Source: Myxococcota bacterium
GTDB taxonomy: Bacteria > Myxococcota_A > UBA9160 > JAFDDA01
DNA: 64,000 nt
Assembly: GCA_965228475.1 (NCBI GenBank)
Contig: OZ245817.1
Coordinates: 3,680,001 to 3,744,000 of the forward strand
Reading direction: 5' to 3'
The translations under genes were made by a program, and so were the position numbers. The stretch's first letter is position 1; each line of letters starts with the position of its first letter. Under the pieces are notes generated by a model that worked only from the letters and a program-made list of their open reading frames with translations, was not told the origin of the DNA and ran no database searches. This document shows positions 2,142-50,813 of this stretch, in pieces.

Positions 2142-2271
2142 GCGTCCTCGCTTCCGCAGTCCCGATCCGCTCGCTGGAGACCGTCTCCCAGCGCGGGGCC
2201 CGGCCGAGAGAAGCACAGCCCATCCGCCAGTTCACCCCGACGCCACGCGGACGTGGTATCGGTTCGCGCAG

Positions 2272-4437
2272 ATGCTGCGCGCACACCGACGCCCCCGGCC
2301 GCTGGCCCTCCTGCTCGCCGCCTTCACTCTTGCAGGCTGCGCGGGGGACGAAGAGCCCACCCCGCTGAGCCTCGTCGGCGGGGCGGTCTGCGCGGGTTGC
2401 CACGCGAAGGAAGCCGAAGCGTGGCGAGGCTCCCACCACGATCTCGCCATGCAGCTCCCCGGCCCGGGATCCGTTCGCGGCGACTTCGGGGACGTCGCCG
2501 TCGAACACGACGGGACGACCTCCCGCTTCCGCCGCGCGGGTGACCGGTACGTCGTCACCACCGCCGGGCCGGACGGCACCGTCGGCGACTTCGAGGTCGC
2601 GTACACGTTCGGCGTCGAGCCGCTCCAGCAGATCCTCCTGCGGCTGCCGAGCGGCCGGCTCCAGGCCTTCACGGTGGCCTGGGATGCCCGGCCTGCTGGC
2701 GAAGGCGGCGAGCGCTGGTTCTCGCTCTACCCGAACGAGACCCTCGTGCCGGGCGATCCGCTGCACTGGACCGGGATCCAACACAACTGGAACCACATGT
2801 GCGCGGACTGCCACTCGACGGGTCTGCGCAAGAACTGGAACGCCGAAGAGGAGCGCTACGAAACCACGTGGACCGACCTCGACGTCGCCTGCGAGGCCTG
2901 CCACGGCGCGGGGGGCCGGCACGCGGCCGCTCCCGCGACGCCCATGCCCGTGCCGCTCTCCCGCGCGGGGCGGCGCTGGGAACTCGGCCCAGGGGCGGCC
3001 ATCGCGCACCTCGCAGCCGACAACGGGTCTGCCGCCGAGATCGAGACCTGCGGACGCTGCCACGCGCGGCGCGCGACCTTGCGCGAGAAACCCGCGAGCG
3101 GCGCTCCCCTGCTCGAGACCCACCGCGTGGCGCGCCTCGACGCCGGCCTCTACTTCGACGACGGACAGATCCGCGACGAGGTCTACGTCTACGGATCGTT
3201 CCGGCAGAGCGCCATGGCCGCGGCGGGCGTCCTCTGCAGCGACTGTCACGAACCCCACGGCCTCGAGCTGCGCGCCGAGGGCAACGCGCTCTGCGCCCAG
3301 TGCCACGCACCCGAGGTCTTCGACGAACGCTCCCATCACCACCACGCGGAGGGCACCGCCGGCAGCGCCTGCATCGACTGCCACATGCCCGAGCGAACCT
3401 ACATGCGCGTCGACGTCCGCCACGACCACTCCTTCCGGGTGCCGCGGCCCGATCTCTCCGTGCGCCTGGGGACGCCGAACGCCTGCGACACCTGCCACGA
3501 GGAGGGCGCTGCCTGGGCCGCCGCCGCCGTGGCCGGCTGGTACCCGGAGGGCCGCAGCGGAACGCCGCACTTCGGGGAGGCCTTCGCGGCAGGCCGGCGC
3601 GGCGAGCCCGGTGCGGCGGCATCCCTCGTCGCGATCGCGGGAGACCCGGCGCAACCGGCCCTCGTCCGCGCGACCGCCCTCGACCTTCTGCTCGGGGCGG
3701 GAGCCCCGGGTGCCGTGCAGGCGCTGCGGAGTTCGGCCCGGGACGGGGATCCGATCCTTCGCTCGGCGGCGGCGGAGGGGGCGGGACGCCTGCCGGGCCC
3801 GCGGGCGATCGAGGTCGCCCGCCCTCTGCTCTCGGATCCCGTCGCCGCCGTGCGGATGTCCGCGGCCGAGACTCTGGCCGGCGTGTCCGACTCGGCGCTC
3901 GCGCCCGCGGAGCAAGAGGCGCGCCGGCGCGGGGTCGAGGAACTCGAATCCGCGCTCGCGCGCGATGCGGACCGGCCCGAGGGCCGTTTCCATCGCGGGC
4001 TGCTCGACGCGCGCCGCGGCCGCCTCGACGAAGCCGCCGCCTGGTACGACGCCGCTCTCGAACTCGAACCCGCCTTCACCCCCGCCGTCGTCAACCGGGC
4101 CGACCTCGCCCGCGCCACGGGAGACGAGGCCCACGGTGAAGCCGTCCTCCGCCGCGCACTCGAGCGGGCGCCCGACGACCCCGACCTGCACCACGCGCTG
4201 GGGCTGTCGCTCGTTCGCACCGGCGGCAAGCGGCTCGCCCTCGAGCACCTCGGGCGCGCGGCCCGGCTCGCGCCCGAACGCGTCCACTTCGCCTACGTCC
4301 ACGCGGTCGCCCTGCGGGACGCCGGGCAGACCGAGCAGGCACGGCGGGTCGCAGCCATCGCTACCGAGCGCAACCCCGGCCATCGCGGCCTCGAGGCCCT
4401 GCTGCGCGAGCTCGAGCGAGACCGCGGCGCGCGCTAG
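2272..4437 (+). CDS. Octaheme c-type cytochrome lipoprotein with HEAT-like and TPR repeats
   Basis: Eight CxxCH motifs (CAGCH, CADCH, CEACH, CGRCH, CSDCH, CAQCH, CIDCH, CDTCH), lipobox LAGC, DPVAAVRMSAAETLA HEAT-like repeats, C-terminal TPR-like helices. Start placed at ATG 2272. Confidence 0.88.
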   Translation: MLRAHRRPRPLALLLAAFTLAGCAGDEEPTPLSLVGGAVCAGCHAKEAEAWRGSHHDLAMQLPGPGSVRGDFGDVAVEHDGTTSRFRRAGDRYVVTTAGPDGTVGDFEVAYTFGVEPLQQILLRLPSGRLQAFTVAWDARPAGEGGERWFSLYPNETLVPGDPLHWTGIQHNWNHMCADCHSTGLRKNWNAEEERYETTWTDLDVACEACHGAGGRHAAAPATPMPVPLSRAGRRWELGPGAAIAHLAADNGSAAEIETCGRCHARRATLREKPASGAPLLETHRVARLDAGLYFDDGQIRDEVYVYGSFRQSAMAAAGVLCSDCHEPHGLELRAEGNALCAQCHAPEVFDERSHHHHAEGTAGSACIDCHMPERTYMRVDVRHDHSFRVPRPDLSVRLGTPNACDTCHEEGAAWAAAAVAGWYPEGRSGTPHFGEAFAAGRRGEPGAAASLVAIAGDPAQPALVRATALDLLLGAGAPGAVQALRSSARDGDPILRSAAAEGAGRLPGPRAIEVARPLLSDPVAAVRMSAAETLAGVSDSALAPAEQEARRRGVEELESALARDADRPEGRFHRGLLDARRGRLDEAAAWYDAALELEPAFTPAVVNRADLARATGDEAHGEAVLRRALERAPDDPDLHHALGLSLVRTGGKRLALEHLGRAARLAPERVHFAYVHAVALRDAGQTEQARRVAAIATERNPGHRGLEALLRELERDRGAR

Positions 4438-14744: not shown

Positions 14745-15596
14745 TCACTCGTCCCCGTCCTCGGCCTCGTCGATGCGGGCGTTCGGATCGGGATTCCAGC
14801 GCGGCGCGCGCTTCTCTGCGAAGGCGCGCGAGCCTTCGAGGAAGTCCGGGTGGGACCAGTGCGCCCGCAGGGAGTCCCAGGCGCGCTCGAGGGCCTCCTG
14901 ATAGCCGAACTCGACCGCACCCCAGACGGCCTCCTTCGAGCGAGCCATCGCCTGGGGCGAGTTGCCCTTCATCTGCTCGGCCATCTCTTCGGCCAGGGGC
15001 AGGAGATCGGCGGGAGCGTCGACCAGCTCGTCGACCAGTCCGAGCTGCCAGGCGCGGTCGGCCTCGAGCCGGTAGTGCCGTCCGAGCAGGGTCATGCGCA
15101 GGGCGGTCCCGAGCGGGAGCCGCTTGGCGAGGCCGACGTTCTCGAGCGCGCCCACCATACCGACGTTCACGTGCGCATCGACGAACGCCGCGTTCGCCGA
15201 GGCGAGCACGATGTCGGCGTCCACCACGAAGTGGAGTCCGCCTCCGACGCACAGCCCGTTCACCAGGCAGATCACGGGTTTCCAGACCCGGTTCTGCTGC
15301 GGCGACCAGAAGACCGCTTCGGCCAGGGGCCGGTCGGCGAAGACCTCGTCGGCCTCGTCGCCCTCCGCCTCGGCGACGTCGAAGCCGGTGCAGAAGTGCC
15401 GCTCCCCGGTGGACCCCAGGATCGCGACCCGAACCTCGGGGTCGTCGCGCACGTCGGCCCAGATCGCGCGGAACACCGGCTGCATCGGCGGCGTGAGCGA
15501 GTTCCCGCGCTCGGGGCGGCAGAGGCGGATGAAGGCCTTGCCGTCGCGCTTCTCGTATTCGACACCCGGCAGCGGTCCGTCGAGATCGATGCTCAT
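14745..15596 (-). CDS. Enoyl-CoA hydratase/isomerase
   Basis: HFCTGFDV, WKPVICLVNGLCVGGG and DFLEGSRAFAEKRAPRW motifs. ATGA overlap with the upstream gene. Confidence 0.9.
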   Translation of the reverse strand: MSIDLDGPLPGVEYEKRDGKAFIRLCRPERGNSLTPPMQPVFRAIWADVRDDPEVRVAILGSTGERHFCTGFDVAEAEGDEADEVFADRPLAEAVFWSPQQNRVWKPVICLVNGLCVGGGLHFVVDADIVLASANAAFVDAHVNVGMVGALENVGLAKRLPLGTALRMTLLGRHYRLEADRAWQLGLVDELVDAPADLLPLAEEMAEQMKGNSPQAMARSKEAVWGAVEFGYQEALERAWDSLRAHWSHPDFLEGSRAFAEKRAPRWNPDPNARIDEAEDGDE

Positions 15597-16576
15597 CCGG
15601 AGACTCCCTCGCCGTCGAGGAACGGCACGAATGCTTCGAGCAGGCGCGGTGTCGCACCGAGCTCGGCAGGCGGCAGCGAGGCCACCTCGCGGATGCGGCG
15701 CGAGATCGGGAAGGCCGGCCCCTCGCGCGTGATGCCGACCGCCCCGAAGACCTGGTGGCCGACGTGGACCGCGTCGAGCGCGGCGCGCGTAGCCGAGCGC
15801 CGCGCGGCCGTGGCCCAGGCCGGTGCCTCGGGATCGTCTTCGTCGCAGCGCCACGCCGCCGCGCGCGCGAGGGCCGCGGCGCCCTCGAGGGCCACCGCGG
15901 AATCCGCGAGCGGATGAGAGACCGCCTGGAACTCGCCGATGGCGCGGCCGAACTGACTCCGCAGGCGGGCGTGTTCGCACGCGGCGTCGAGGAGCCGTCG
16001 GCCGACCGCGGCGAGATACGCAGCGCGCGAGAGATCGGAGCGAAGGAGCGCGTGCGCCGCCGGACCGAGGCACGTCGTCCGCTCGAGCGCACCGCGGGCC
16101 GCCGGCTCACCGGCGAGGGTCCTCACCGCTTCGAGCTCGCCGGCCGGCTTCGCGAGCCAGACCTCACCGCTCTGGGCATCGACCTCGAGAAAGCGCTCCG
16201 CATCGAGGCCCCAGGGCAGCACGGGCGGTTCCCCCAGACAGACGACCACCCCGCCCGCGGCCACGTCGGCGCGGTCCGGCTCGGGGAGAACGTCGCAGGC
16301 GAAGAACGTCGCGAGCAACGGGCCGGGGAACGCTGCGAACCCGAGCGCTTCGAAGAGCGCGACGCGTTCGAGCGCCCCGCCCTGCCCCTCGGCACCCGCC
16401 ACCGCGAAGCCGCCGAGCTCGGCAAAGGCCCGCCATGCGTCGGCCGGGAAGGCGCCTTCGCGGCGAAGCAGCGCGTCGTCGCAGTGATCGCGGCAGAGCG
16501 CGGCGACGGCGTCGTGGAGCGCCTGCTGGCCCTCGTCGAAGCCGAGGTCGAGGCTTCGTTCGGTGGCAGCGCTCAC
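15593..16576 (-). CDS. Acyl-CoA dehydrogenase-family short (partner) subunit
   Basis: RSQFGRAIGEFQAVSHPLAD and HQVFGAVGITRE motifs. Lacks SEPxAGSD. GTGA overlap. Confidence 0.85.
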   Translation of the reverse strand: MSAATERSLDLGFDEGQQALHDAVAALCRDHCDDALLRREGAFPADAWRAFAELGGFAVAGAEGQGGALERVALFEALGFAAFPGPLLATFFACDVLPEPDRADVAAGGVVVCLGEPPVLPWGLDAERFLEVDAQSGEVWLAKPAGELEAVRTLAGEPAARGALERTTCLGPAAHALLRSDLSRAAYLAAVGRRLLDAACEHARLRSQFGRAIGEFQAVSHPLADSAVALEGAAALARAAAWRCDEDDPEAPAWATAARRSATRAALDAVHVGHQVFGAVGITREGPAFPISRRIREVASLPPAELGATPRLLEAFVPFLDGEGVSG

Positions 16577-17532
16577 GCGGAGACGGGCCATCGGGCCCGG
16601 GCTGCGCTGCGCCGGTGGCCGGCCGCGCCGCCGAGCTCGAGCCGAAGCGCCTGGAGGCGCATGCTGAAGACGTGGAGGTCGTGCTCGCGCGTGAAACCCA
16701 TCGCACCGCAGAACTGGTGCGTCTCGTCGAAGACGGCCTTCGCCGTTTCGCTCGCGTAGGCGGCGGCGACCGCGGCGGCCTCCGCGGCCCGAGCGCCCGT
16801 CGCATCCGCGGCTTCGAGGGCCAGCCAGCGGGTCCCTTCGACGCGGACCGCCAGATGGGCGAGGCGATGCTGCAGGCCCTGGAAGGAACCGAGCGCACGC
16901 CCGAACTGCCGGCGCTGCTTCACGTGCTCGAGCGTCGCATCGAGTGCGCCCCGGGCGCTCCCCGCGACTTCGCACGCCAATGCGACCCGCCACCAGCGCA
17001 GCAGCGCCCCGCTCTCGCCCGCGAGCCCTTCGGACTCTGCGTGGATCTCCGATGAGACCATGCCGAAGGGATACCCGAAGCTCGAACGCACCGGCTCGAC
17101 GCTGCCCGGCCGGATCGTCGCGATCCGCATCGCCTCCTCGGAAGCGAACAGCACCTGCCGGGCATGGGCGGCGAAGCGGACCGGCCTGCCGGACCCGGCT
17201 TCGGGCCGCCATGCCAGGGCGACGGGCCCGGAGGCTTCGCGGCCGCCGAGCCCGCCTGCCTCCCGGACTCCGGGGATCACGAGTGTCGCGGCTCCGATCG
17301 CCGCGACCCCTGCCGCACGCGCCACCGCCTCCGTGAGCAGCGCGGCCTCGAGCGCACCGGACTCGGCGAAGAGTCCGAGAAAGCCGGCTTCCTCGAGCGC
17401 GGCCTCGAGCTCCGCGTCGTACCCGCCCTTGGCCGCGAGCTCGATGGCGCGCGCCGGCCCCGCATGGCGCTCGAGGAGCTGCCCGACGGCGTCGAGGACC
17501 GATCGCTGGTCTTCGTCGAGTTCGAAGTCCAC
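16573..17532 (-). CDS. Acyl-CoA dehydrogenase-family short (partner) subunit
   Basis: MDFELDEDQ start; RRQFGRALGSFQGLQHRLA and HQFCGAMGFTREHDLH motifs. Lacks SEPxAGSD. Confidence 0.87.
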   Translation of the reverse strand: MDFELDEDQRSVLDAVGQLLERHAGPARAIELAAKGGYDAELEAALEEAGFLGLFAESGALEAALLTEAVARAAGVAAIGAATLVIPGVREAGGLGGREASGPVALAWRPEAGSGRPVRFAAHARQVLFASEEAMRIATIRPGSVEPVRSSFGYPFGMVSSEIHAESEGLAGESGALLRWWRVALACEVAGSARGALDATLEHVKQRRQFGRALGSFQGLQHRLAHLAVRVEGTRWLALEAADATGARAAEAAAVAAAYASETAKAVFDETHQFCGAMGFTREHDLHVFSMRLQALRLELGGAAGHRRSAARARWPVSA

Positions 17533-17535
17533 GCC

Positions 17536-18681
17536 CTACTCCCGCGGCAGCTCGAGAAGATGACGCGCGATCAGGTTCAGCTGGACCTCGGTCGCCCCCA
17601 CCGCCACCCCGGCCGTCATCGCCCAGCGAAAGCGCGTGTCCGCGTAGCTCCCGTGGGCGAGCGCCTCCTCCCCGAAGACCTCGATGGCCAGCTCCGCCAC
17701 CGCCTGCTCGGCCGCCGTTCCGGCCACGCGGGCGACGTTGCTGTCGGCACTCGGGGGTGCACCGTGCGCGCGCTGATCGATCACGCGATAGGTCAGCACG
17801 CGCGCAGCCTCGCAGGCGGCGCGCGCCTGGCCGAGCTTCTCCTGGATCCGCGGGTCTTCGAGCTGGCCGCGAGCCCGCGCGCGCTCGGCGAGGTCGTCGA
17901 GGATCAGGGCGGCCCGGTGATAGCGCGCGGCACCGACGCGCTCGAACTGCAGGGCATAGGAGACCACGTTCCAGCCTTCGTCCTCGGGCCCGAGCCGGCA
18001 GGAGACCGGGACCCGGACCGCATCGAAGAACACTTCGTGGAAGTAGCGGTCCCCCACGACCGAGGGGATCTCGCGCACCTCGATTCCCGGCAGGTCCATC
18101 GGGCAGAGCAGGACCGAGATACCCTTGTGGCGGCGCGAATCCGGATCCGTGCGGACCAGCAGGAAGCAGAAGCGCGCGTGGTTGGCGTAGGAGGTCCAGA
18201 TCTTCGAACCGTCGACCACGTAGTCGTCGCCGTCCCGGCGGGCGGCGGTCCGGAGCGCCGCGAGGTCGCTACCCGCTTCGGGCTCGGAGAAGCCCTGACA
18301 CCAGAGGACGTCGCCCGACGAGATCAGCGGCAGGTGTTCGGCCTTCTGCGCCTCGCTGCCGAACTTCATGATCGCGGGGCCGATCCAGTTGACGTTCATG
18401 TACTGGGGACCGCGCGGCTCCCCGTTGCCCCACATCTCCTCGCCCAGGATCGCGTGGCGCCACGGCGAAGCGTCGCTCCCGCCGAACTCCACGGGCCAGC
18501 TCTGGGTCAGCCAACCGCGGTTCGCGAGCTGCGCGCAGAAGCCCCGGGAGAACTCGGCCTGGTCGTCGCTGCCGGGGCCGCCCTTCGACAGCCGCTCCCA
18601 GTCCCCGGGCAGGGCCTCCGCGAGGAAGGCCTGGACCTCCCGGCGGTAGGATTCCTCTTCCGGCGACCAACCGAAGTGCAC
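17536..18681 (-). CDS. Acyl-CoA dehydrogenase (full-length subunit)
   Basis: WCQGFSEPEAGSDLAAL, GSKIWTSYA, ALQFER and GATEVQLNLIA motifs; GGAGG RBS. Confidence 0.92.
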   Translation of the reverse strand: MHFGWSPEEESYRREVQAFLAEALPGDWERLSKGGPGSDDQAEFSRGFCAQLANRGWLTQSWPVEFGGSDASPWRHAILGEEMWGNGEPRGPQYMNVNWIGPAIMKFGSEAQKAEHLPLISSGDVLWCQGFSEPEAGSDLAALRTAARRDGDDYVVDGSKIWTSYANHARFCFLLVRTDPDSRRHKGISVLLCPMDLPGIEVREIPSVVGDRYFHEVFFDAVRVPVSCRLGPEDEGWNVVSYALQFERVGAARYHRAALILDDLAERARARGQLEDPRIQEKLGQARAACEAARVLTYRVIDQRAHGAPPSADSNVARVAGTAAEQAVAELAIEVFGEEALAHGSYADTRFRWAMTAGVAVGATEVQLNLIARHLLELPRE

Positions 18682-22808: not shown

Positions 22809-23075
22809 ATGTCCGACTCCGAACGAGACCTCCCGGTCGCGAAGCCGACCGCCGAAGCCCGTGCGGCCGCATGGCTGCGCGAGGTCGATGGCCGGCTGAT
22901 GCGCAAGCGCGAAGATCCGGACGGTCCCGAGGGCTGGGTCGCCATCGTGAAGACGCCCGCCGCCACGGCGAAGCGCTCCCAGGTGATTCTCGGCTTCGGC
23001 GATTCCCCCGTGGCTGCCGTGTCGACGGCGCGCGAAGCCTGGATCACGGCCTCACAGACGCGGACGGTCCACTAG
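22809..23075 (+). CDS. Hypothetical protein (88 aa)
   Basis: Protein-like composition, fills the gap between genes, TAGACT 7 nt before ATG, shares a CTAG stop with the convergent gene. Confidence 0.65.
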   Translation: MSDSERDLPVAKPTAEARAAAWLREVDGRLMRKREDPDGPEGWVAIVKTPAATAKRSQVILGFGDSPVAAVSTAREAWITASQTRTVH

Positions 23076-23677
23076 CCAGCGACGCCGCGCGAGGCGTTTC
23101 CCGAGAGCCGGACCCGATGGAGCGACGGGTCGGCGCAGGCCTGCATCGCCTCGAGATCGAGCCCGCCGCCGAGGAACGCCGCGATGCGCTCGCACGCCGC
23201 GCGAGGCGCGTGGACGAGCTCCCGGTGCTCGAGGTCGAGACACGCGACGTCGAGGCGCCCCTCTAGCTGCGCCCGCGTCTCCACGGCCTGGTGCGAGAGG
23301 ATCGCCGCGACGCGCTCGTCCGAGAGGCCGTCCTCGGCGGGCGTGCCGAGCCTCGCGAGCAGTTCGGCCTGGGAGCGGACCGTCTCGAGCGGGTCTCGCC
23401 GCAGCCACAGGACCCGGTATAGAGGGCCCTCGGGCAGGTGCCGCACGGGCGGATGGACGACCTTCACGCAGCGTCCCGGCGCATCGGCGAGCCAGGCCGC
23501 GTCGCTCGGCAGACGCTTCACCGCTTCGAGTTCGAAATACCCGCGAGGGTTTCCGTCGTCGGCGGGCCGCTCCCCATCGGTGAGCGGCTCGATGCCCCCG
23601 GCGGCGAGCATCTGCATGAGCAACGAAGTGCCCGAGCGCGGAAGTCCCGAGACGACGGTGACGAAGGGGTGCGACAC
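23072..23677 (-). CDS. Sulfotransferase-family protein
   Basis: 5'-PSB loop VSGLPRSGTSLLMQML, GNPRGYFE and LRRDPLETVRS motifs. Confidence 0.8.
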   Translation of the reverse strand: MSHPFVTVVSGLPRSGTSLLMQMLAAGGIEPLTDGERPADDGNPRGYFELEAVKRLPSDAAWLADAPGRCVKVVHPPVRHLPEGPLYRVLWLRRDPLETVRSQAELLARLGTPAEDGLSDERVAAILSHQAVETRAQLEGRLDVACLDLEHRELVHAPRAACERIAAFLGGGLDLEAMQACADPSLHRVRLSGNASRGVAG

Positions 23678-23724: not shown

Positions 23725-24468
23725 CTAGCGGACGAGGCGGAGGACGATGCCCGGGCGGACCGCCTGGGTGCGCGCGGCCGAGCCGGCGTCGTCGACGACC
23801 TGCTCGCGCAGTGCCGAGGCGTTGGCGAGGGCGCCGGATACCTCCCCGGGCGAGGCGTGGGCGGCCGCCACGTTCTCCCGGGCAACGCTCGTCTGGGCGA
23901 TCTCGGCCTCGAGCGCCCTTCCCCGATCGGCCAGCTCCTCGCGGAGCCGGTCGACGGCTTCGAGGGCGGTGTCGATGCGTTCGACGGCGTCCGGCGCCTC
24001 CGGGTCGAGCGCGTCCACGCCGAGCGCCTCGGCCGACGCGTCGGCCAGCGCGCCACGGCCCGCGAGAAGGGGCTGACCCACGTAGTCGGCGTTCTCGGCG
24101 ACCCGCGTCACTTCGAGGGCGAGCGCCGAGAGCTTGCCGTGGCGGTCCCGCGCTGCCGCGGAACGTGCGCCCTCGGAAGCCAGCGCGCGCATTTCCCGCA
24201 GGGCCGAGAGCGTTTCCGAGAGCGCACTCCGGGCCACGCGCAGCCCGCTGGCGTCGCGTTCGAGCGCGTCCGCCTGCCGCAGCGCCATTTCATCGACGAC
24301 GGCCAGCCAGCGTTCGAGCGCGACGCGATCGCCCTCGGGTGAGCGGGCGCCTCTCGCGACGGCACCCCCCGCGACGAGCCTCGCCAGGGCGCTCCCGAAG
24401 GACGGGTTCCGACGATGCTGGCGCAGCGGGATCACGTTCCCGATCCTGCGTTTCGTGTCCTGTCCCAC
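23725..24468 (-). CDS. Highly divergent flagellin-like protein
   Basis: Collinear resemblance to flagellin N- and C-terminal helices: SALARLVAG, ALSETLSALREMRALASE, EVTRVAENADYVGQPLLAG, RIDTALEAVDRLREELA, RENVAAA, QVVDDAGSAARTQAVRPGIVLRLVR. GTG 24468 follows GGGAG; 24435 is an alternative start. Confidence 0.72.
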   Translation of the reverse strand: MGQDTKRRIGNVIPLRQHRRNPSFGSALARLVAGGAVARGARSPEGDRVALERWLAVVDEMALRQADALERDASGLRVARSALSETLSALREMRALASEGARSAAARDRHGKLSALALEVTRVAENADYVGQPLLAGRGALADASAEALGVDALDPEAPDAVERIDTALEAVDRLREELADRGRALEAEIAQTSVARENVAAAHASPGEVSGALANASALREQVVDDAGSAARTQAVRPGIVLRLVR

Positions 24469-24657
24469 GGCGACTCCCGCGCCCGAGAGCACCCTCCGCC
24501 GCTCTCCTGGAAGACATCGCCCGCTGCGCGCAGCGAGCGAGGGGGGAAGAACCCAGAACCGGCGGCCCGCGCGTGACGCGAGAGCAGGCCGCGCGCAGCG
24601 GATCGGCGCCCGGCGTGATGGCGGCCGAAACCGGCTCCGCGCCGTCGGAGGCGGACG

Positions 24658-25176
24658 TTGAGCGCCGACACGCGGCCGCTCGCGCGTCGCGCCCTCGACG
24701 CCGCGACGCGCGCCGTCCTGCGCATCGGCTTCTCCCTGCTGAAGCGCTGGTGGTGGCTGACCCATCCGACGATCGAAGGCGTCTACGTCGCCGTGCGGCG
24801 CGGCGACGACGTGCTCGTGATCCGCAACTCCTACCGGGCGGCGTACTCGTTCCCCTCGGGAAGGCGCGGCCGCAAGGAAGATCCGGCCCGGGCAGCGGCA
24901 CGCGAGCTCCGAGAGGAGGTCGGGATCGACGTTCCGCCGGAAGCGCTGCACGAGGTGGCCGAGGTGAAGCTCGAGACGAAGCTCGTCGACGATCACGTCC
25001 ACTTCTTCGAACTGCGGCTCACCGAGCCGCCGGCGATCCGGATCGACCGCCGCGAGGTCGTCTGGGCCGAGTTCGAGCCGCTCGCGAAGGCCCGCTCGCG
25101 CGAACTCCTCCCCCTGGTGCGGCGTTACGTCGAGGGCACCCTCGACGAGATCCGCGTCACGCCGGCGGGACGGTGA
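24658..25176 (+). CDS. NUDIX hydrolase
   Basis: Nudix box GRRGRKEDPARAAARELREEVGI. Confidence 0.85.
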   Translation: MSADTRPLARRALDAATRAVLRIGFSLLKRWWWLTHPTIEGVYVAVRRGDDVLVIRNSYRAAYSFPSGRRGRKEDPARAAARELREEVGIDVPPEALHEVAEVKLETKLVDDHVHFFELRLTEPPAIRIDRREVVWAEFEPLAKARSRELLPLVRRYVEGTLDEIRVTPAGR

Positions 25177-28100: not shown

Positions 28101-28714
28101 GGGTCGAAGCCGGCGGCGGCGAGGCGGGAGAGCGCCGCTTCGGGATCCGCGTAGGCCCGAGGGAGAGCGTGCTCCATGACCTCCCGAACGGCGCGGGTCA
28201 TGCCCTCTTCATCGGCATCGACCTCGAAGGCCGGATGCAGGCCCGCCTCCATCGGGGACTCCGCGAGCAACCGGCGGCAGAAGGCGTGGATCGTGCGGAC
28301 GACGAGCCGGTCTAGGGAGGAGCGCAGCACCTCGGCCCGCGCACGTCGGACCTCCTCGGACGGCAGGGCCTCGACGAAGACGGCCTGGGGATCGGCCCCC
28401 GAGGCGATCTCGCCGAGCCACTCGCCGACGCGCTGGGCCATCTCAGCCGCAGCGGCGTCGGTAAAGGTGATGGCGACGACGCGGGAGAGCGCCCGCTGGG
28501 CCACGCGGTCCGGAACCGCCTCCTCCCCACGCTCGCGCAGCCAGGCCTCGGCCTTGTCCCACCCGGGCCCGAGCGTCCACGCCACGATCCGCGCAACGAG
28601 GATGCTCGTCTTCCCGCTTCCCGCGCCGGCCTCGACGAGCAGGGGCGCAGCGAAGTCCGTCTGGGCGCGTTCCCGCACCGCGCTATCCCGGGCGCGCACC
28701 TCGGCCTCACTCAT
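25157..28714 (-). CDS. addA: UvrD-type helicase-nuclease, AddA-like
   Basis: Walker A AGAGSGKT, LVDEFQDTD, VGDPRQSIYGWRSAD, SIHKAKGLDF, LYVAMTRAR, and C-terminal nuclease GAVDLVY..DYKSD. Confidence 0.88.
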   Translation of the reverse strand: MSEAEVRARDSAVRERAQTDFAAPLLVEAGAGSGKTSILVARIVAWTLGPGWDKAEAWLRERGEEAVPDRVAQRALSRVVAITFTDAAAAEMAQRVGEWLGEIASGADPQAVFVEALPSEEVRRARAEVLRSSLDRLVVRTIHAFCRRLLAESPMEAGLHPAFEVDADEEGMTRAVREVMEHALPRAYADPEAALSRLAAAGFDPQDVEEALLVFVQAGVPSSCLKEDPFSPERVGRFREKLRAACAAFVAAEEGRLVGLRGAKNQGALGSIGDTQSLLEDRLDDSEFVSGLQDIWKENFVDKIDEWASGDFGKTDAIGDRAEPTSAACRSLHPLLDNVLKVDPSTLETWRHALTPLLAEVEARLRTSGIETFAALLADARELVEGKPHVARKVREGIDQLLVDEFQDTDDVQCAIVEALGLQGEPEARPGLFLVGDPRQSIYGWRSADLRSYEAFVAKVEAAGGERLYLTRNFRSLPAVLAEVGRCMEGVMVERPGVQPPFQELLAEREGAGEIEHWLSWRWDAEGAAPGKTRAPEATEIEAQALAEDVTRLHGEGVAWRDVAVLFKAMTNVDAYLDALRDAGVPYTVERDRRYFQRREVIEASALLRTVLDPHDHVALVAWLRSASVGVPDAAWVPLWARGFPEKMSALQGQESEQIPARLEELRACIAEAAAAVAPETPGLGRIEGWEGLLWEGVEALAELRRRLHTEASDDFIEALRTRTLIEVTEAGRYLGPYRVANLDQFFRDVQSDLEETGGDVSEVLRRIRLAVENQAEVEEARPREAADDAVRIMSIHKAKGLDFDHVYLPQLHRGAGGRSPQTRVGRGPQRGEYQLFGVPTLGFGEAEEQRQQIEEAERVRTLYVAMTRARNRLVLIGKHAIKGDSLSGSHAALLAERRAGAETRMAELAGRGEAAERSENGVLWRFPSLAPARAALAVAAAAGDPLPDLATIRSEAAALATRREESRAREQRARSRAASSHEAERDAAREENFPTEDGGVRRRQSGREAETAAAIGTALHAALERWPEGAGREEGLVAARGVMAATLAGLLPPARFGDAEAEANAALAAFAETPLFERFRALESRVVARELPVLLPPGEEDPALGYVVGAVDLVYRDEDGALVVADYKSDVLESDAALDERVARYAAQGEVYVRAVREALALEEAPRFELWFLSRGEAVTVPPA

Positions 28715-31700
28715 CGTCGAACCCCATTCGCCAGACCCCGAGGAGCGCGTCGGCCTGGGCTCCGGCGCCGCTCGCGCCTGTCTCGGACCACTCGGACAGA
28801 CGCCGGCGGGCGCCCGAGTCGCCGCGCGCGCAGGCGATCTTCACTTCGCACCACTCACAGGTGGCCGGCTCGTCGCCGTTCTTGAGGTCGAGCAGGCGCG
28901 GTACGAAGGTGCCGGCATCGCTCGCCGCGACGACCCGACCGACCGCGCGCCGGAATGCCTCCTTCAGTGCGTCGTCCCCGGGCCCCACTTCGTAGACCCG
29001 GCTGCGATCCTCGACTTCGGGCTTCAGGAAGAGGAAGCGCCCTCGGGCACCCGGCGAAGCCTCGGAGTAGGCCGCGGCTTGGAGCGCGCTGCCCATGCGC
29101 ACCCCCTTCAGGAGGTTTTCGGCGCGCTTCTCCGGCTTGGCGCCCTTCAGCTCGACGCCCCCCGCCTTTGCGTTTCCCGTCTTGTAGTCCGTGAAGATCC
29201 TCCCGCCCGGCTCTCCGTCCACCCGGTCCGCCCGGAACCAGAGGGTCTTCGCACCGGAGGGCGTCGGGACCTCGGCGCTGCCCACGGCTTCCACGCAGGC
29301 GACGCCGACCGGTCCGTCCTCCCAATCGGTGCAGCGCGCGACGTCGAGGAACCCGAGGATGCGCTCCGCCAGGAGAGCGGCGTAGCCGGGAACGGCGATG
29401 CCTTCCTCGAAGAGCAGCTTGCGCGCCGCGTCGACGGACCAACCGCGGAGCCGCTCCTCGCTCGGCCAGGGGACCGGCTGCGCCGTGGCCGCCTCGAGCT
29501 CGCGCGGATCCTCGCCGAGCGCCTCGACGGCGATGCGTTCGAGCACGTCGTGGACCAGGCGCCCCTGCAACAGGGCACTCGCGGCGGGGAGCGCTTCGAG
29601 CGCGTCCGGCGGGCGCTCCAGGCGGAGCATGCGCGTCAGAAACGCCTGCCACGGACAGCGCGCGATGGCCTCGACCGTGGTGACCCAGAGCGCGCCGTGG
29701 CGGAGATCCTTCGCCTCCCGAGCGGGGCCGACGTGGCCGAAGTACGGGCCGAGCAAGGACTCCGGATCCGTGCGCGCCTCGAACTCCTTGCGGACACGAT
29801 CGCGCGCCGCCGCGTTCTCGCGCGAACCGCCCGCCTCGTCCACCGCCTCCGCGAGCAGCTCTCGCTGTCGCTTCGGGCTGGCGTGGAGGCCGGCGAGGAG
29901 GGCCCACTCGTGGGCCGGGCGCATCGAGTGGCCGCCTTCCGGGGACTCCGGCTCGGGCACGAAGGCGGTGGGGACGAGCTCCGTCTCCTGCTTGGGCGCA
30001 AGCAAACGATCGACCAGGGGCGAAGGCGCCTTGGCCTTGCCGTCGTCACCGAGGATCTGCCAGGAAAGCGTGACGTCGGCGCTCGCGGAGAGGAGCTGCG
30101 CAAAGAGGAAGCGTTCTTCGTCGTGACCGCGCTTCATCACCGGAAGCTCCGGGAGGATCTCCTGGAGCGGCTCGCGGACCTCGTCCGGCAGCAGCGGATC
30201 ATCGGAAACGACGCGCGGGAACTGATCGCGGTTCAGGCCCAGCACGAAGAGGTGCCCGAAGGTCCGGCCGCGTGCCTCGGCGACGTCGAGCACCTGGACA
30301 CCCCCGCCGGCGCCACCGAGCGGTTCGTGGTTGCGCTGGAAGGCCCGCTCGATCACGAGCGCAAGCTCCGCGCGAGCGAGCGCGCCCTCGGGCGGGAGCG
30401 TGCGCCCCAGGTCTTCGAGCCGGGCGACGACCTCGCGGCTCGCTTCGTCCTTCCCCCAGCCGAGCCCCTTCCGCGCGAGCGCGATGGCCCGCTCGAGCTG
30501 CTCTCCGAAGGCGGCGCTCTCCGCGGCATCCTCGAGCCCGGTGACGACTTCCCGGGCTCGACGGATCCCTTCCTCGAGCGTTCTCACGCCCAGGGACCGG
30601 CGCTCCGCAAACCGATCCGAGCCCTCCTTGCGGGGGTCGGGCTCCGGGGAAGCCTCTTCGACCCCTTCCGCCTCCGCGGAACCACCGCCGAGGCCCCGCC
30701 GCACGGGCAGGGGCAGGCGGCCCGCCCCTCGCAGGGCCTCCTCCGCATCGAGGGCGGCGAGATCCCCGAGCCGTGCCACGCCGAGGGCATGCAGCCCGAG
30801 CCGAAGATCGTCGCGTCGAACGGCATCGATGCCGCCGAGCGCGTTCACGAACCGATCGACGGGGAAGCGCTCGGCCAGGCGGAGCAGATCCACGAGCAGG
30901 GAAGCGCGGCGTCCGGCCGGCGTGAGCGGGCCGCTGAGCCCCACACCGGAGAACGGGATGCCGAAGCGTCGGAACTGGACGCGAAGTGGCGAGGCGTAGA
31001 GGTGGGGCGTCCGGGTCACGACCGCCATGTCCTCCCAGGCGGCCCCCTGCTCTCGGAGGGCGAGCAGGCGGCGCCCGACCGCGCGGACCTCGGCGTCGGT
31101 CCCGGGGGCGCGGAAGAAGCTCCGCTGGCAGGTCTGCGCGGCCCCATCGCCGTCGGCCCCGGGAAGCGTCGCGGCAAGGGGCGCGACGCGCGCTTCGAAG
31201 CGGCGGGCGAACTCCACCCCAAGGTCCGGCCGCGCCGGGTCCAGCGGGTCGGGCGGGCGATCGAGCAGGACCAGCGACGGCCGCTGGCGCACGAGCTCGC
31301 GGAGCAGGTCCGTCACCAGACCCGTCGCGTCCGCATAGCCGTGGAGCAGAACCCGCGCGGCCGGGAAACTCTCGGGGCTCTTCTCGAGCGCTTCGCGGGC
31401 CTGCCGCAGGACGTCGCCCATCCGGCCCAGACCTCGGCCGGCCAGCTCGCGGCGCACCCCCAGCGCCGTCTGTGCGACGGCGGCCGCGCGCAGCCAGGGC
31501 CCGTCCCGGCGGCCCGACGATTCGAAGAAGTCCTCCACCGCCGGCGCCGTGGCTTCGTCGAGCCCGGCGTCGAGCAGGTCCGAGACGGCCGCGGTGACGG
31601 CGCCGTAGCCGTCGACGAGTTCAGCGAGAGCCGCGAGCCCGGGCACGGCCCGCGCCGCCTGCTGCGCGAGGACCGGGAACCACTCGGCTCCACGCAGCGG

Positions 31701-31997
31701 CTTCTCCCCCGCGCGCTCGAGGATCTGCAGAGCCACCGTGTGGTGCGTCTGGACCGAGACGCCCGCGACCGCGCCGAACTCCCGAACCAGTCGGGTCGCC
31801 ACGTGGTCTCGCAGGCTGCGGGAAGGAACGACGATCACCATCGGCCGGACGAGCCGCGCCGGTTCCTTCCGGACGGCGGCGTGCCAGGCAGCGACCTCCT
31901 CGAGGAGCTTCGCCTCGACGACGCGCGCACCGCGCCCGACGAAGACGGCATCCTCGCGCGCAGGTTCCCCCATCGCCATTTCCATCTGTTCGGCCAC
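28707..31997 (-). CDS. addB: AddB-like partner with PD-(D/E)XK nuclease and Fe-S cysteines
   Basis: Degenerate helicase body, ARGRTFGHLFVLGLNRDQFP, CPWQ..RADRVD..DYKTG..CEWCEVKIAC (four-Cys staple). Overlaps the addA start. Confidence 0.8.
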   Translation of the reverse strand: MAEQMEMAMGEPAREDAVFVGRGARVVEAKLLEEVAAWHAAVRKEPARLVRPMVIVVPSRSLRDHVATRLVREFGAVAGVSVQTHHTVALQILERAGEKPLRGAEWFPVLAQQAARAVPGLAALAELVDGYGAVTAAVSDLLDAGLDEATAPAVEDFFESSGRRDGPWLRAAAVAQTALGVRRELAGRGLGRMGDVLRQAREALEKSPESFPAARVLLHGYADATGLVTDLLRELVRQRPSLVLLDRPPDPLDPARPDLGVEFARRFEARVAPLAATLPGADGDGAAQTCQRSFFRAPGTDAEVRAVGRRLLALREQGAAWEDMAVVTRTPHLYASPLRVQFRRFGIPFSGVGLSGPLTPAGRRASLLVDLLRLAERFPVDRFVNALGGIDAVRRDDLRLGLHALGVARLGDLAALDAEEALRGAGRLPLPVRRGLGGGSAEAEGVEEASPEPDPRKEGSDRFAERRSLGVRTLEEGIRRAREVVTGLEDAAESAAFGEQLERAIALARKGLGWGKDEASREVVARLEDLGRTLPPEGALARAELALVIERAFQRNHEPLGGAGGGVQVLDVAEARGRTFGHLFVLGLNRDQFPRVVSDDPLLPDEVREPLQEILPELPVMKRGHDEERFLFAQLLSASADVTLSWQILGDDGKAKAPSPLVDRLLAPKQETELVPTAFVPEPESPEGGHSMRPAHEWALLAGLHASPKRQRELLAEAVDEAGGSRENAAARDRVRKEFEARTDPESLLGPYFGHVGPAREAKDLRHGALWVTTVEAIARCPWQAFLTRMLRLERPPDALEALPAASALLQGRLVHDVLERIAVEALGEDPRELEAATAQPVPWPSEERLRGWSVDAARKLLFEEGIAVPGYAALLAERILGFLDVARCTDWEDGPVGVACVEAVGSAEVPTPSGAKTLWFRADRVDGEPGGRIFTDYKTGNAKAGGVELKGAKPEKRAENLLKGVRMGSALQAAAYSEASPGARGRFLFLKPEVEDRSRVYEVGPGDDALKEAFRRAVGRVVAASDAGTFVPRLLDLKNGDEPATCEWCEVKIACARGDSGARRRLSEWSETGASGAGAQADALLGVWRMGFDDE

Positions 31998-32022
31998 GAA
32001 GCGAGGTTACCGCGGCGGCGGG

Positions 32023-32073
32023 TCGAATCCGGTCACACCCCGGATTCGAAACCAGGATCGAAACAGGGTTCGA
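32023..32073. promoter_or_regulatory. Inverted repeat and SOS-box-like palindromes upstream of addB
   Basis: 10-bp perfect stem TCGAATCCGG/CCGGATTCGA (32023-32049); TCGAAA-CAGG-GTTCGA (32058-32073). Confidence 0.35.
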
Positions 32074-32085
32074 GCGGGCGGCGGG

Positions 32086-32952
32086 TCACGCTCCCGCGGC
32101 CGCGCGCTCCATCTCGGCGATCATGGCTTCGTAACCCTCGCGGAACGTCGGGTAGGAGAACGCGAAGCCCGTCGCCCGCAGCCGCGCATTGCGGCAGCGC
32201 TTCCCCGACGTGCGCGGGGCCTCGCTCGTGGCCGTGGGCGGCGACGGCGCGCCGAGCCGCGACGCCAGCCAGGTGAGCACCTCGCCCCGTTCGGCGGGCT
32301 CGTCGTCGACGCCGAGGTAGAGCCCCTCGAGCGCATCGAGCACGAGCAGGTGGGCGAGCGCCCGGGCTGCGTCGTCCCGATGGATCCGGTTCGTGTAGTG
32401 CGGCGCCGCCGGGCGTTCCGCCTCCCCGCGACGCACGCTCTCGAGCAGTCGCGTTCGGCCGGGGCCGTAGATCCCCCCGAGGCGCAGAGCGGAACCCGCT
32501 CCGCCGTGGCTCGCCACGAGCGCTTCCGCCTCGAGCATGATCGCCCCGCGGAAGCTCGCCGGCTCGGCCGGGCTCGTCTCCTCGACCCACTCGCCGGAAT
32601 CCTGGCCATGGACGGAGGTGCTCGACGTGAACAGGAGGCGAGGCGCCATGCCCGCGGCCGCAGCAGCATCGATCACGTTCGCCAGACCCGTCACGTAGGC
32701 ACGCCGGTAGGCCGGCTCATCGCGGCCGTCGGCCGCGGCGGTGTAGGCGATCGCATCGAGGCCGCCGGCGAACACGGGCGAGAGCGCCTCGCGCAGCGCC
32801 GCCGACACCGAGAGGTCCGCCGCGACGCCGGTGACACCCTCCGGTACGGCGGACGCGTTCCGCCGAAGGCCGAAGACCTCGTGCCCGGCTTCCGCAAGCA
32901 ACCCTGCCAGGGCGCCCCCCACATACCCACACCCGGCCACCAGAACCCGCAC
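32086..32952 (-). CDS. NAD-dependent epimerase / atypical SDR (YeeZ-like)
   Basis: VLVAGCGYVG, FTSSTSVHG, LRLGGIYGPGR and TNRIHRDDAA motifs; GGAGG RBS. Confidence 0.88.
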   Translation of the reverse strand: MRVLVAGCGYVGGALAGLLAEAGHEVFGLRRNASAVPEGVTGVAADLSVSAALREALSPVFAGGLDAIAYTAAADGRDEPAYRRAYVTGLANVIDAAAAAGMAPRLLFTSSTSVHGQDSGEWVEETSPAEPASFRGAIMLEAEALVASHGGAGSALRLGGIYGPGRTRLLESVRRGEAERPAAPHYTNRIHRDDAARALAHLLVLDALEGLYLGVDDEPAERGEVLTWLASRLGAPSPPTATSEAPRTSGKRCRNARLRATGFAFSYPTFREGYEAMIAEMERAAAGA

Positions 32953-33006
32953 GAGACCTCCCGTCCTTCGGGATGATAGGATCCGCAGCGTCCTTTCGGA
33001 GGCCCC

Positions 33007-33945
33007 ATGACGCGACCGGTCCACTTCGGTGTCACGCTCCCGCAGATCAAGCGCTCCTGGCAGGAGACGCGCGAGGCGGCCACCACCTTCGACGAGCTCG
33101 GCTTCGATTCGGTCTGGGTGTGTGACCACCTCTACGGCGTGCCGCTGCCGACCCTCCCGATCCTCGAGGCCTACACCCTGCTCTCGGCGGTGGCCGCGGT
33201 GACGGAGCGCGTCGAGCTCGGCGCCCTCGTGACGCCTCCGTTCTTCCGGAACCCGGCCGTCCTCGCCAAGCAGATCGCCACGATCGACCAGATCTCGAAC
33301 GGGCGCGCCATCGCGGGGCTCGGGGCCGGCTGGTTCGAAGCGGAGTTCCAGGGCTACGGCTGCGAGTTTCCGGGCCTCGGGGCGCGCATGAAGGCCCTCG
33401 AAGAAGAAGTGACGATCCTGAAGGCGCTCTGGACCGAGGAGCGCGCGAGCTTCGAGGGCGAACACTTCCGTGTCGCCGACGTCGTGTGCGAACCCAAGCC
33501 GGTGCGGCGCCCGCCCATCCTGATCGGCGGGAGCGGCGAGCGCGTCCTGATGGGGATCGTCGCGCGCCACGCGGACGTCTGGAACAACCTCGCCGTCTTC
33601 CAGCCGCAGCTCGAAGCCAAGATCGCGGCGCTCCACCGGCGCTGCGAGGAAGAAGGCCGCGACCCGGCCACGCTGACGGTCTCCCAGCAGTGCGTCGTGG
33701 TCCTCGCCGAGGACGAGGCCGGCGCCACGGAGGCCCTCGCCAAGGCCCAGAAGATCTACGGAGGCCACATGGGGGGAAACCTCGAAGCCCATGGCATCTG
33801 GGGGCACCCCGAAGCCGTCGTCGAACGGATCGCGCGCCACGTGGAGCTCGGCTGCACGAGCTTCGTGATGGAGTTCTTCGGCCGCGATACCCGCGTCCCG
33901 GCGCGCCTGTTCGCCGAGAAGGTCCTCCCCGCCTTCCGCTCCTAA
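33007..33945 (+). CDS. LLM-class flavin (possibly F420)-dependent oxidoreductase
   Basis: GFDSVWVCDH, RNPAVLAKQIATIDQISNGR, GLGAGWFEAE and PPILIGGSGE motifs. Confidence 0.9.
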   Translation: MTRPVHFGVTLPQIKRSWQETREAATTFDELGFDSVWVCDHLYGVPLPTLPILEAYTLLSAVAAVTERVELGALVTPPFFRNPAVLAKQIATIDQISNGRAIAGLGAGWFEAEFQGYGCEFPGLGARMKALEEEVTILKALWTEERASFEGEHFRVADVVCEPKPVRRPPILIGGSGERVLMGIVARHADVWNNLAVFQPQLEAKIAALHRRCEEEGRDPATLTVSQQCVVVLAEDEAGATEALAKAQKIYGGHMGGNLEAHGIWGHPEAVVERIARHVELGCTSFVMEFFGRDTRVPARLFAEKVLPAFRS

Positions 33946-34043: not shown

Positions 34044-34745
34044 ATGGCCTCGAAGAAGAAGAACCACAAGCGCGCCCTCCAGGAGGGTGCCACCGTGCAG
34101 CTCCAGCGCGAGGACGGCGAGACCCTGCGCGGCGTGGTGATGCGCATCGAGGACGATCTGCTCGACGTGGTCGTCCGCGCCCGGGTCGAGCAGGGGGAGC
34201 TGCTCCGCCTCTCGCGGACCGTCCAGAACGACGCCCGCTACACGGCGGTCATCGAGGTGGTCGAATCCGGGACGGGCCGCTCCCGCGTCCGCCTCGTCGG
34301 CGACTGGCAGCGCATCCAGATGCGGGAGTACGTCCGCGTCTCGGTCTTCGGGATCCCCCTCGACGTCCGGCGCGACGAAGAGCTCGAAACGATGAGCCAG
34401 CGCGAAGCGCGGCTCCGGCGGCTGCGCGCGGTCGAGGAGGAGGACGAGCGGCCCTCCCGCCTGCTCGACCTCTCCGGAGGCGGCCTGCGGTTCGAGAGCC
34501 GCGAGCGCTTCTCCGAGGGCGAGAACGTCGAGTTCGACTTCACCCTGCCCGAGACGGGTCCGCTCCACCTCCGAGGCGAGATCGTCCGGGTGCTGGCGGT
34601 CGCGGAAGCGAACGAAGACAGCGGCGAGCCCGAGGGGTTCAACCAGTACGGCGTCCGCTTCCTCAGCGTGGCCGAGTCCGACCGCGTGAAGATCATGACC
34701 TGGGTCTTCGGCGAACAGGCCGCTCGCTTCCGCGAGTCCAAGTAG
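34044..34745 (+). CDS. PilZ-domain c-di-GMP receptor (YcgR-like flagellar brake architecture)
   Basis: N-terminal beta-rich domain, then RxxxR (REYVR) and DxSxxG (DLSGGG), YGVRF, C-terminal helix. Confidence 0.82.
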   Translation: MASKKKNHKRALQEGATVQLQREDGETLRGVVMRIEDDLLDVVVRARVEQGELLRLSRTVQNDARYTAVIEVVESGTGRSRVRLVGDWQRIQMREYVRVSVFGIPLDVRRDEELETMSQREARLRRLRAVEEEDERPSRLLDLSGGGLRFESRERFSEGENVEFDFTLPETGPLHLRGEIVRVLAVAEANEDSGEPEGFNQYGVRFLSVAESDRVKIMTWVFGEQAARFRESK

Positions 34746-49857: not shown

Positions 49858-49861
<4 letters not shown>

Positions 49862-50787
49862 CGGCCGCCGAGCTCGAGCCGGACCCCGTCGAAGCGGACG
49901 AGGCGGTCTTCGTCCGCCACGCGGGACCACTCGAACCCGTCGAGCAGCTCGGCGGGCGTCGTCGGCTCTTCGCGGTCGCGCAGACCGCACGCCGTGGCCA
50001 GGAAACCGATCAACGCCCTCGCCCCGTACCCGGCGTCGCGCAGGGCCGGTAGTCCCACGGCACCGTGGAACTTTGCGAGCTTCTCCCCGCGCTCCTCGAG
50101 CAGGAGGAGGTGGTGCCGGTACGAGGGGGCGGGCCACCCGAGCATGCTGCGCAGCCGGAGCTGCACGGCGGTGGTCCCGGCGAGGTCCCGGCCGCGAACG
50201 ATGCGGGTGACGCCCGATGCCGCGTCGTCGACGACCGAGGCCAGGTGATAGGCGACGGCGCCGTCGCGGCGGCGGAGCACCGGGTCGCCGTAGGCCGCGG
50301 CGGGGTCTTCGCCGAGGTCCGCTCCCGCTTCGTCGCGGCAGGCGATCATGCCCTCCGGGAGCACGACACGCAGCGGCTCCCCGCTCTCCCGCCAGCCGCC
50401 GGACGGAAGCGGCCGGCCGCGACACGTGCCCGGATAGCGGTAGCTACCGTCGGGCGCGCGCAGACCGTGGGATTTGTGCGTGGCGCGCGAACACGCGCAG
50501 GGATAGAGCCGCCCTTCGGCGGCGAAGCGGTCGAGCGCCTGCTCGTGGGCGGCAGCGTTGGCCGACTGGCGGACGGTCTCGTCCCAATCGAGGCCGAGCC
50601 AGGCGAGCCCCTCGGTCATGCCCGTCACGAACTCGGGCTTGCAGCGGACGGGATCGAGGTCCTCGAGGCGCAGGAGGACACGGTCGCCGCGGGAGCGGGC
50701 ATCGAGCCAGCACAGGAGTGCGGCCAGCAGCGTCCCGGGGTGCGGGTCACCCGTGGTCGAAGGAGCGAAACGTCCGGTTCCGGGCAT
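49858..50787 (-). CDS. gluQ: Glutamyl-Q tRNA(Asp) synthetase-like protein
   Basis: [51 protein letters not shown] and KLAK motifs. About 309 aa, no anticodon-binding domain. Confidence 0.82.
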
Positions 50788-50813
50788 CGCGGGGAGCCTA
50801 CGGCGCCGCCCGG

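Follow-up and report, generated by a model that had tools for sequence, protein, structure and literature searches.

How far can a flagellin drift and still be kept by its cell, and for what? This question is raised by a solitary gene of a Myxococcota bacterium (assembly GCA_965228475.1, contig OZ245817.1), located in a stretch of 64,000 nucleotides (positions 3,680,001 to 3,744,000) that we call the window. A preliminary description, made from the letters alone, saw in it an orphan, intact but highly degenerate flagellin and offered two broad explanations, a repurposed paralogue or an early-stage pseudogene. Here, we ask whether the protein is a flagellin at all, where it comes from, which parts of it have been kept or lost, and which role would best account for them.

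The gene and its surroundings

The features on which the argument relies, in window positions, are these:

24658–25176, plus strand: NUDIX hydrolase gene (Pfam), divergent from the flagellin-like gene
24474–24478, minus strand: Shine-Dalgarno-like GGGAG, 5 nt ahead of the GTG at 24468, read from the sequence
23725–24468, minus strand: coding sequence of a derived flagellin paralogue of 247 aa, from GTG at 24468 to TAG at 23725–23727
24370–24447, minus strand: clade-specific N-terminal motif, residues 8–33, RIGNVIPLRQHRRNPSFGSALARLVA, in place of the canonical ND0
23857–24339, minus strand: D1-like helical core, residues 44–204, an AF2 block of pLDDT 75–98 (helices 44–99, 106–126 and 161–204)
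23731–23844, minus strand: C-terminal D0-type helix, residues 209–246, predicted FliS contact
23072–23677, minus strand: sulfotransferase gene PF13469 (Sulfotransfer_3), 47 nt downstream on the same strand, in the same order on metagenome contig L034
22809–23075, plus strand: small88, a convergent gene of 88 aa with no Pfam family, a neighbour both in the window and on L034

The public gene call (P0002) is 255 aa long and starts 8 codons further upstream. We consider GTG 24468 the better start because of the GGGAG before it and because it agrees with the N-termini of the homologues P0003 and P0004. Open frames mean little in this DNA: the window has 68–74% G+C, and the frame of the gene, in a region of 72% GC, is open over 783 codons among several overlapping ORFs on both strands, so the absence of stops is weak evidence. 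That the frame from 24468 to 23725 is the correct one follows instead from its codon-position GC (0.82/0.54/0.88), which resembles that of neighbouring genes, and from the finding of homologues for no other frame. A candidate antisense gene, the plus-strand ORF 23857–24342, is codon-aligned and would share the GC pattern; it appears to lack homology support and was set aside.

The altered hallmarks listed in the preliminary description are all there to be read, namely ARLVAGG, LREMRALASE, LEVTRVAENADYVGQPLL and ELADRGRALE. HASPGEVSG stands in the place of the lost SRIxDxD motif, and the C-terminal P..VL.L is kept (as RPGIVLRLVR). The ORF is uninterrupted over its 247 codons, as had been claimed, and the frame is also open in 5/5 family sequences (see below).

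Pfam confirms the flanking NUDIX and Sulfotransfer_3 genes. The sulfotransferase is possibly co-transcribed with the flagellin-like gene, and no terminator-like site was seen between the two. Beyond small88 lie an alpha/beta hydrolase and an acyl-CoA ligase, and on the opposite side a UvrD/PD-(D/E)XK helicase. The statement that no flagellar genes surround the locus also stands: flagellar Pfam families number 0 in the 6 neighbours and in the 41 further window genes scanned out of 46 called, a scan that covered the window outside about 2141–4434, 15596–17536, 28714–33007 and 49861–50814. The sole motility-related domain among these genes belongs to a PilZ-domain protein ~10 kb off (34044–34745, plus strand). 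About 140 nt after the last position of the window, at a distance of roughly 40 kb from the derived paralogue, is the start of a canonical flagellin gene. Across many phyla, a flagellin was found within 3 kb of the sulfotransferase in 1/80 loci, so this enzyme is not a general flagellin partner.

Like the preliminary description, we find no sigma-28-like promoter: the upstream region has no match to a pattern taken from two canonical flagellin promoters of the same genome, which is weak evidence since the pattern is loose and has 167 matches genome-wide. A sigma-70 scan of the upstream region returned 0 sites, which says little since 0 were expected. The -10-like GCGCCGATCC at 24600–24609 occurs 5 times in the window (1.7 expected), and folds of the leader RNA were no better than those of shuffles (z -0.07 to -0.57). 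Among the canonical flagellin leaders of this genome that were compared (L001:1918–2007, minus strand; L003:1402–1491, plus strand; L002:1921–2010, minus strand), two contain a CCACCAAGGAUCGGUGG hairpin whose loop shows GGA, together with an AAGGAGGA Shine-Dalgarno site, and both have a TCA(A/T)-N16-GCCGA(A/T) element upstream. These GGA-loop hairpins resemble CsrA sites. A sigma-54-type TGGCAC-N5-TTGCT is found instead at the canonical flagellin that follows the window. The region upstream of the derived paralogue contains neither the leader hairpin, nor AAGGAGGA, nor TCA(A/T)-N16-GCCGA(A/T), nor TGGCAC-N5-TTGCT.

Flagellin identity, family and descent

Is the protein a flagellin? Curated profiles and the predicted fold give different answers. 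Flagellin_N (PF00669) scores 21.8 bits against a gathering score of 26.6 and covers model positions 69–137 of 139, while Flagellin_C (PF00700, gathering score 23 bits) has no match at E<=10 in the 247-aa protein. Orthologues sit around the same border: P0003 passes Flagellin_N with 34.4 bits and reaches 19.6 bits for Flagellin_C, and P0064 fails Flagellin_N with 23.5 bits. Among the NCBIfam families listed, 12/13 are flagellin models, all scoring far under their cut-offs. On the fold side, the AF2 model (mean pLDDT 82, alignment of 27 rows, flagellins included) has only flagellins as its top Foldseek matches, the first being the B. subtilis flagellin of a flagellin–FliS complex (5maw_D). This fold match is partly circular because canonical flagellins are inside the AF2 alignment.

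Sequence comparison settles the matter. Searched against PDB sequences at E<=10, the protein matches flagellins in 40/40 cases (best 1.6e-8), in separate collinear N- and C-terminal stretches. A profile built from 5 family sequences matches the order's canonical flagellins with values of 1e-19 to 1e-31, along almost the whole of the profile. Together, these two results rule out a chance or compositional similarity. Local identity to the flagellins of its own genome is 28–34%. We also rejected an identity as FlgL: no FlgL model is among the 13 NCBIfam families listed, and the gene is not in a flagellar cluster. The protein is a true, very divergent flagellin homologue by descent and fold, one that falls below curated thresholds. 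The D0/D1 helical hairpin is present in the predicted model, in which D1 reaches a pLDDT of 85–98 while confidence is low over the first 40 residues (pLDDT < 50 at residues 1–25 and 34–40).

The label 'orphan' fits the location of the gene and is wrong as to its relatives, since orthologues exist: four metagenome proteins of 41–52% identity. They are easily missed. When the single protein was used in a word-index search, its own cluster alone was recovered. An exhaustive HMMER scan recovered the full-length P0003 (246 aa, 52% identity) and two partial relatives, and a profile search added P0064 (274 aa, 41–43% identity). The family thus known consists of 5 clusters among 5.8 billion, all but the window's own from metagenome sources. 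Its full-length members have gaps in frame only and are collinear down to 41% identity. One relative, P0004, which is 136 aa long and was seen on 6 contigs, has its C-terminal 93 residues fused straight onto the N-terminal motif, so that ND1 is wholly absent. As a side observation, six long proteins (P0006, P0008, P0023, P0024, P0044 and P0050; 868–1516 aa) each contain 5–10 separate stretches matching query residues ~170–219; these could represent a repeated flagellin CD1-like helix or generic coiled coil.

Within the order, the family profile has a strong match solely in the window's genome (383 bits; the next best among 193 genomes is 111 bits). An alignment-based scan of genome contigs gave 141 pattern stretches, of which 0 were confirmed, and the same kind of scan on metagenomes gave 1 locus from at least 599 pattern matches. 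None of 10 hydrolase-related loci contained a family match. Synteny is preserved on one metagenome contig: on L034, the part coding for the last 179 aa of P0003 precedes the sulfotransferase, small88 and hydrolase genes, as in the window.

A genome of the same genus (G001) has the helicase, sulfotransferase, small88 and hydrolase genes adjacent to each other, with the flagellin-like and NUDIX genes absent between them. Its helicase–sulfotransferase gap measures only ~150 nt (L024, L026), and its NUDIX homologue is placed elsewhere, between RidA-like and MOSC-like genes; hence, within the genus, the segment with the NUDIX and flagellin-like genes is present at this site in one genome and absent in the other. 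Neither FlhA nor a flagellin was found in G001 (89% complete), so loss of the gene there fits a dependence on the flagellum. In a further genome (G002), three short DNA matches inside the gene have no protein-level counterpart and are spurious GC-rich similarities; the sulfotransferase there is at a contig end, so G002 counts neither for nor against presence of the gene.

The best non-self matches point to where the gene came from. They are short flagellins (263–270 aa) of family f10 and of genome G006, located outside flagellar clusters (L036, L038, L039 and L040; L035 and L015). In 4/5 of the best-scoring f10 loci, the short flagellin has a convergent small88 homologue as its neighbour, and one f10 locus (G111 = L039/L075) has the sulfotransferase beside it as well. 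Over the six loci, small88 is a shared neighbour in 4/6. A tree of 32 rows separates the degenerate clade and the short flagellins from 23 canonical ones with support 98/96, which makes the two sister groups. In a tree of 37 rows the degenerate clade has support 100/100, and its stem measures 2.32+0.75 substitutions per site where the median tip length is 0.23. The fragments L047, L048 and L050 and the duplicate L037 were left out of the trees. Because long branches and skewed composition were flagged, we base the placement on synteny and on the tree alike. Similar in length and in their solitary location, the short flagellins differ from the window's clade in how much they have kept: 66–75 of 76 reference columns against 28–35, and matches to both Pfam models (100–123 and 59–70 bits) that the window's clade mostly fails. 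The gene would thus descend from a subfamily of short flagellins of this order that sits outside flagellar clusters and beside an 88-aa gene, and in the window's lineage the copy would have evolved about tenfold faster.

Residues kept and lost, selection and predicted FliS docking

The genome (5.0 Mb, one contig) is that of a flagellated bacterium, with FlhA and five canonical flagellins scoring 123.8–153.7 bits. It has one FliS, and FliS, FliW, CsrA and FliD are clustered near 1.73 Mb, where csrA and fliW have as a neighbour a FlgL-like gene with a weaker Flagellin_N match (61.5 bits). Over the order, flagellar genes are unevenly distributed: the flagellin profile matched 61/193 genomes, and FliS 41/112 genomes passing a 90%-completeness filter, which suggests repeated flagellar loss or gain.

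As a yardstick of degeneracy we took as reference the 76 alignment columns with an identity of 90% or more across 29 flagellins of the order. Of these, 28/76 are kept in the window protein, 35 in P0003 and 29 in P0064. By comparison, three unrelated flagellins of other taxa keep 49, 49 and 59. Pfam scores for the N and C models tell the same story: 21.8 bits and none for the window protein, 100–123 and 59–70 for the short subfamily, and 122–151 and 75–86 for the canonical flagellins of the same genome. The lost blocks are SG.RI.RA..DAAGLAIS.E, Q..RN..D, NGTL, most of FNG, G...NR..S..RS and SRIRD.D.A.E; the kept ones are the ND1 core (E.AL.E....L.R.R.L), EN...A, QA and the C-terminal L.L. Among the losses are both D0–D1 junction motifs (SG.RI..A.DDAAG and SRI.D.D.A.E), which have been replaced in the window protein and which we take to be the segments that join D0 to D1.

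Conservation within the family is uneven. Over 6 pairs, the N-terminal motif (residues 8–33) has a mean pairwise identity of 75%, the highest of all regions, the others ranging over 27–57%; residues 34–70 lie at 27% and the C-terminal helix at 52%. The N-terminal segment of the window protein contains two prolines. At the other end, the motif P..V.L.L is conserved across the family.

The preliminary description proposed to compare substitution rates with an orthologue, where dN/dS near 1 and disrupted orthologues would speak against a function. For the one pair available (the window gene and L034, C-terminal 178 codons), the NG86 estimates are dN 0.44, dS 0.73 and dN/dS 0.60, with a bootstrap range of 0.42–0.87 and 2/300 replicates at or above 1. 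The ratio is below 1, and the orthologues are undisrupted. In the same comparison, dN/dS is 0.33 for the sulfotransferase, 0.32 for small88 and 0.19 for the hydrolase, and the flagellin-like gene has a dN higher than those of the sulfotransferase and the neighbouring hydrolase by factors of 1.4 and 3, respectively. Synonymous sites are near saturation (ML dS 30), with NG86 and LWL85 remaining usable, and 0.60 is an upper estimate because NG86 undercounts dS at a GC3 of 88%. These values, drawn from few sequences, speak for selection that is relaxed but purifying rather than neutral.

Structure prediction with FliS had also been proposed. When the genome's FliS (alignment of 20 rows) was modelled with residues 140–247, the C-terminal helix docked into FliS with a score of 0.72, the best of 3 controls reaching 0.00. 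This mark is attained by 116/157 solved complexes and 2/215 mismatched pairs, a calibration that is roughly valid here because the alignments are self-made. Runs share at least 87% of contacts, the partner has a pLDDT of at least 67, and the interface comprises residues 209–246. Given that flagellin–FliS complexes have already been solved, and given the self-made alignments, we read this result as showing a FliS-like C-terminus rather than binding itself. In B. subtilis, FliS is described as gripping the D0-C part of flagellin, and the N-terminal 72 residues as sufficient for FliW binding (PMC6070490). The counterpart of this FliW-binding region is the most remodelled portion of the window protein.

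Possible functions and a recurrent neighbour

What, then, could such a protein do? Our preferred reading, which we find somewhat probable, is that the gene is real and maintained and that its product is exported by the flagellum with the help of FliS and has ceased to polymerise, in the manner of FlaC of Campylobacter. The D1 helical core and the C-terminal D0 helix have been kept and both D0–D1 junction motifs lost, with the canonical N-terminal helix swapped for a clade-specific basic motif; according to this reading, the export chaperone FliS would grip the D0 helix. The protein would bind FliS and then be exported through the flagellar type III apparatus; once outside, it would not be polymerised into the filament as a normal subunit, and it would probably escape the FliW–CsrA loop that senses flagellin. 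The outcome would be a non-structural secreted or secretion-coupled flagellin. What suggests an export substrate free of normal polymerisation and of FliW sensing is the combination of the FliS-like C-terminus, the remodelled N-terminus and the FlaC precedent. In this respect, 'repurposed paralogue' is the half of the earlier proposal that gains support, from the frame intact in 5/5 sequences, the clade-specific N-terminal motif, a dN/dS below 1 and the predicted FliS docking.

FlaC occurs in C. jejuni and other Campylobacterales, which are host-associated bacteria, and acts on host immunity. It is described as a non-structural secreted flagellin that binds FliS and not FliW (PMC5466977, PMC4863622), a pattern mirrored here by the predicted FliS docking and the remodelled FliW-binding region. 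The likeness is one of description, and there are differences: the window protein fails the Pfam cut-offs, and its lineage appears environmental. A TLR5-silent secreted variant, one of the roles floated earlier, has no basis here, since the nearest relatives by neighbouring gene are probably environmental Myxococcota/Deltaproteobacteria MAGs.

Two further systems offer points of comparison. FljJ of Caulobacter crescentus, likewise a flagellin paralogue, is reported to be assembled beside the hook and to be unable to form a filament alone; it governs the translation of other flagellins until secretion removes it, and works with the co-repressor FlbT and the chaperone FlaF (PMC7591256). It differs from the window protein in its 49% identity to its structural paralogues (PMC7591256), against 28–34% local identity here, and in its partners, as our genome has FliW, CsrA and FliS instead. 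No match to FlbT or FlaF (PF07378, PF07309) was found in the window's genome, in a search that detected them in a Caulobacter control genome; a strict FljJ-type mechanism is thereby excluded. The flagellin-homologous proteins (FHPs) of pathogenic Vibrio, also surplus flagellin-like proteins and comparable by description only, are reported as ORFs that are expressed and excreted, are not needed for the filament and have a role in biofilm formation (PMC6692518).

The clade is a very divergent case of the known non-canonical flagellin paralogues. It shows how far a flagellin may drift and yet stay kept, with sub-threshold profile scores, lost junction motifs, a retained end predicted to bind the chaperone and a newly gained conserved N-terminus. 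To our knowledge, bacteria with several flagellins are common, and paralogues with a known non-structural role are few (FlaC, FljJ and the Vibrio FHPs). With a traceable ancestor in the short flagellins beside small88, it amounts to a 'natural experiment' on which parts of a flagellin serve export and which serve polymerisation.

Could the protein still be part of the filament? As a minor or specialised structural subunit, it would co-assemble with the five canonical flagellins in a short proximal or distal segment or in a junction-like layer. The flagellin fold with its confidently predicted D1 core and the predicted FliS-type C-terminus would suit such a subunit, as would the presence of several flagellins in the genome and the example of FljJ, reportedly assembled next to the hook though it makes no filament alone (PMC7591256). 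We nevertheless judge this unlikely. The 48/76 changed order-invariant residues include both D0–D1 junction motifs, the N-terminal segment has two prolines and a pLDDT < 50, P0004 has dispensed with ND1 yet keeps the N-terminal motif and the C-terminus, and the gene lies outside any flagellar cluster.

Less credible again is a decaying relic, that is, a duplicate freed from selection that is drifting towards loss and has no present function. This is the early-stage pseudogene of the preliminary description, and it draws on real signs of relaxation: the gene is the fastest-evolving of its neighbourhood, scores under the Pfam cut-offs, has no recognised promoter, belongs to a tiny family (5 clusters among 5.8 billion) and is missing from the same-genus G001, which would fit a dispensable relic too. 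Decay, however, is hard to square with a gene whose frame has stayed open and collinear in 5/5 sequences, even at 41% identity, and whose gaps are all in frame. Moreover, conservation is uneven, peaking at 75% in the N-terminal motif, dN/dS is 0.60 with an upper bootstrap of 0.87 and is overestimated by NG86 at GC3 88%, and a Shine-Dalgarno-like site is in place. The absence from G001, where no FlhA or flagellin was found, also fits flagellum dependence. The pseudogene is thus disfavoured, albeit for a gene that evolves faster than its neighbours and is absent from a genome of the same genus.

Last in our ranking comes a cytoplasmic regulator whose N-terminal motif titrates FliS, FliW or another partner and which export merely removes, a secretion-relieved checkpoint of the FljJ kind. 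A new partner is suggested by the fact that the most conserved part of the protein is a new, basic N-terminal motif; P0004 consists of only this motif and the C-terminus predicted to bind FliS, the genome has FliW, CsrA and FliS, and a regulatory flagellin has been described (PMC7591256). Against this, the FljJ partners FlbT and FlaF were not found in the genome, and the counterpart of the FliW-binding stretch known from B. subtilis (PMC6070490) is the least canonical part of the protein.

A bolder version, to which we give more credence than to the relic and less than to a structural subunit, takes the whole clade to be a regulatory flagellin that evolved independently, is coupled to secretion and operates in a FliW–CsrA organism. 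The basic N-terminal motif would bind RNA, FliW, CsrA or small88 (modelled as a dsRBD-like alpha-beta3-alpha fold). FliS-dependent export via the completed flagellum would then remove the protein and so report assembly status, and the 136-aa P0004 would be a stripped-down sensor.

Whichever role applies, the analysis flags small88 as a candidate partner of solitary flagellins. The 88-aa protein has 15 homologue clusters with a mean column identity of 64%, and its invariant positions include W22, G28-R29-L30, G42-W43-V44-A45, G62-F63-G64 and a C-terminal His. No Pfam family covers it and its Atlas clusters are all unnamed. The AF2 model (pLDDT 77) has an alpha-beta3-alpha topology, for which Foldseek returns weak dsRBD and HPF-like matches alone (E 5e-3 and worse, TM 0.4–0.5). 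The longest contigs of P0004 and of the small88 homologue P0071 are equal in size (10407 bp); such equal longest contigs, of 10407 and 3062, are the sole basis of a suggested link of P0004 and P0064, respectively, to small88.
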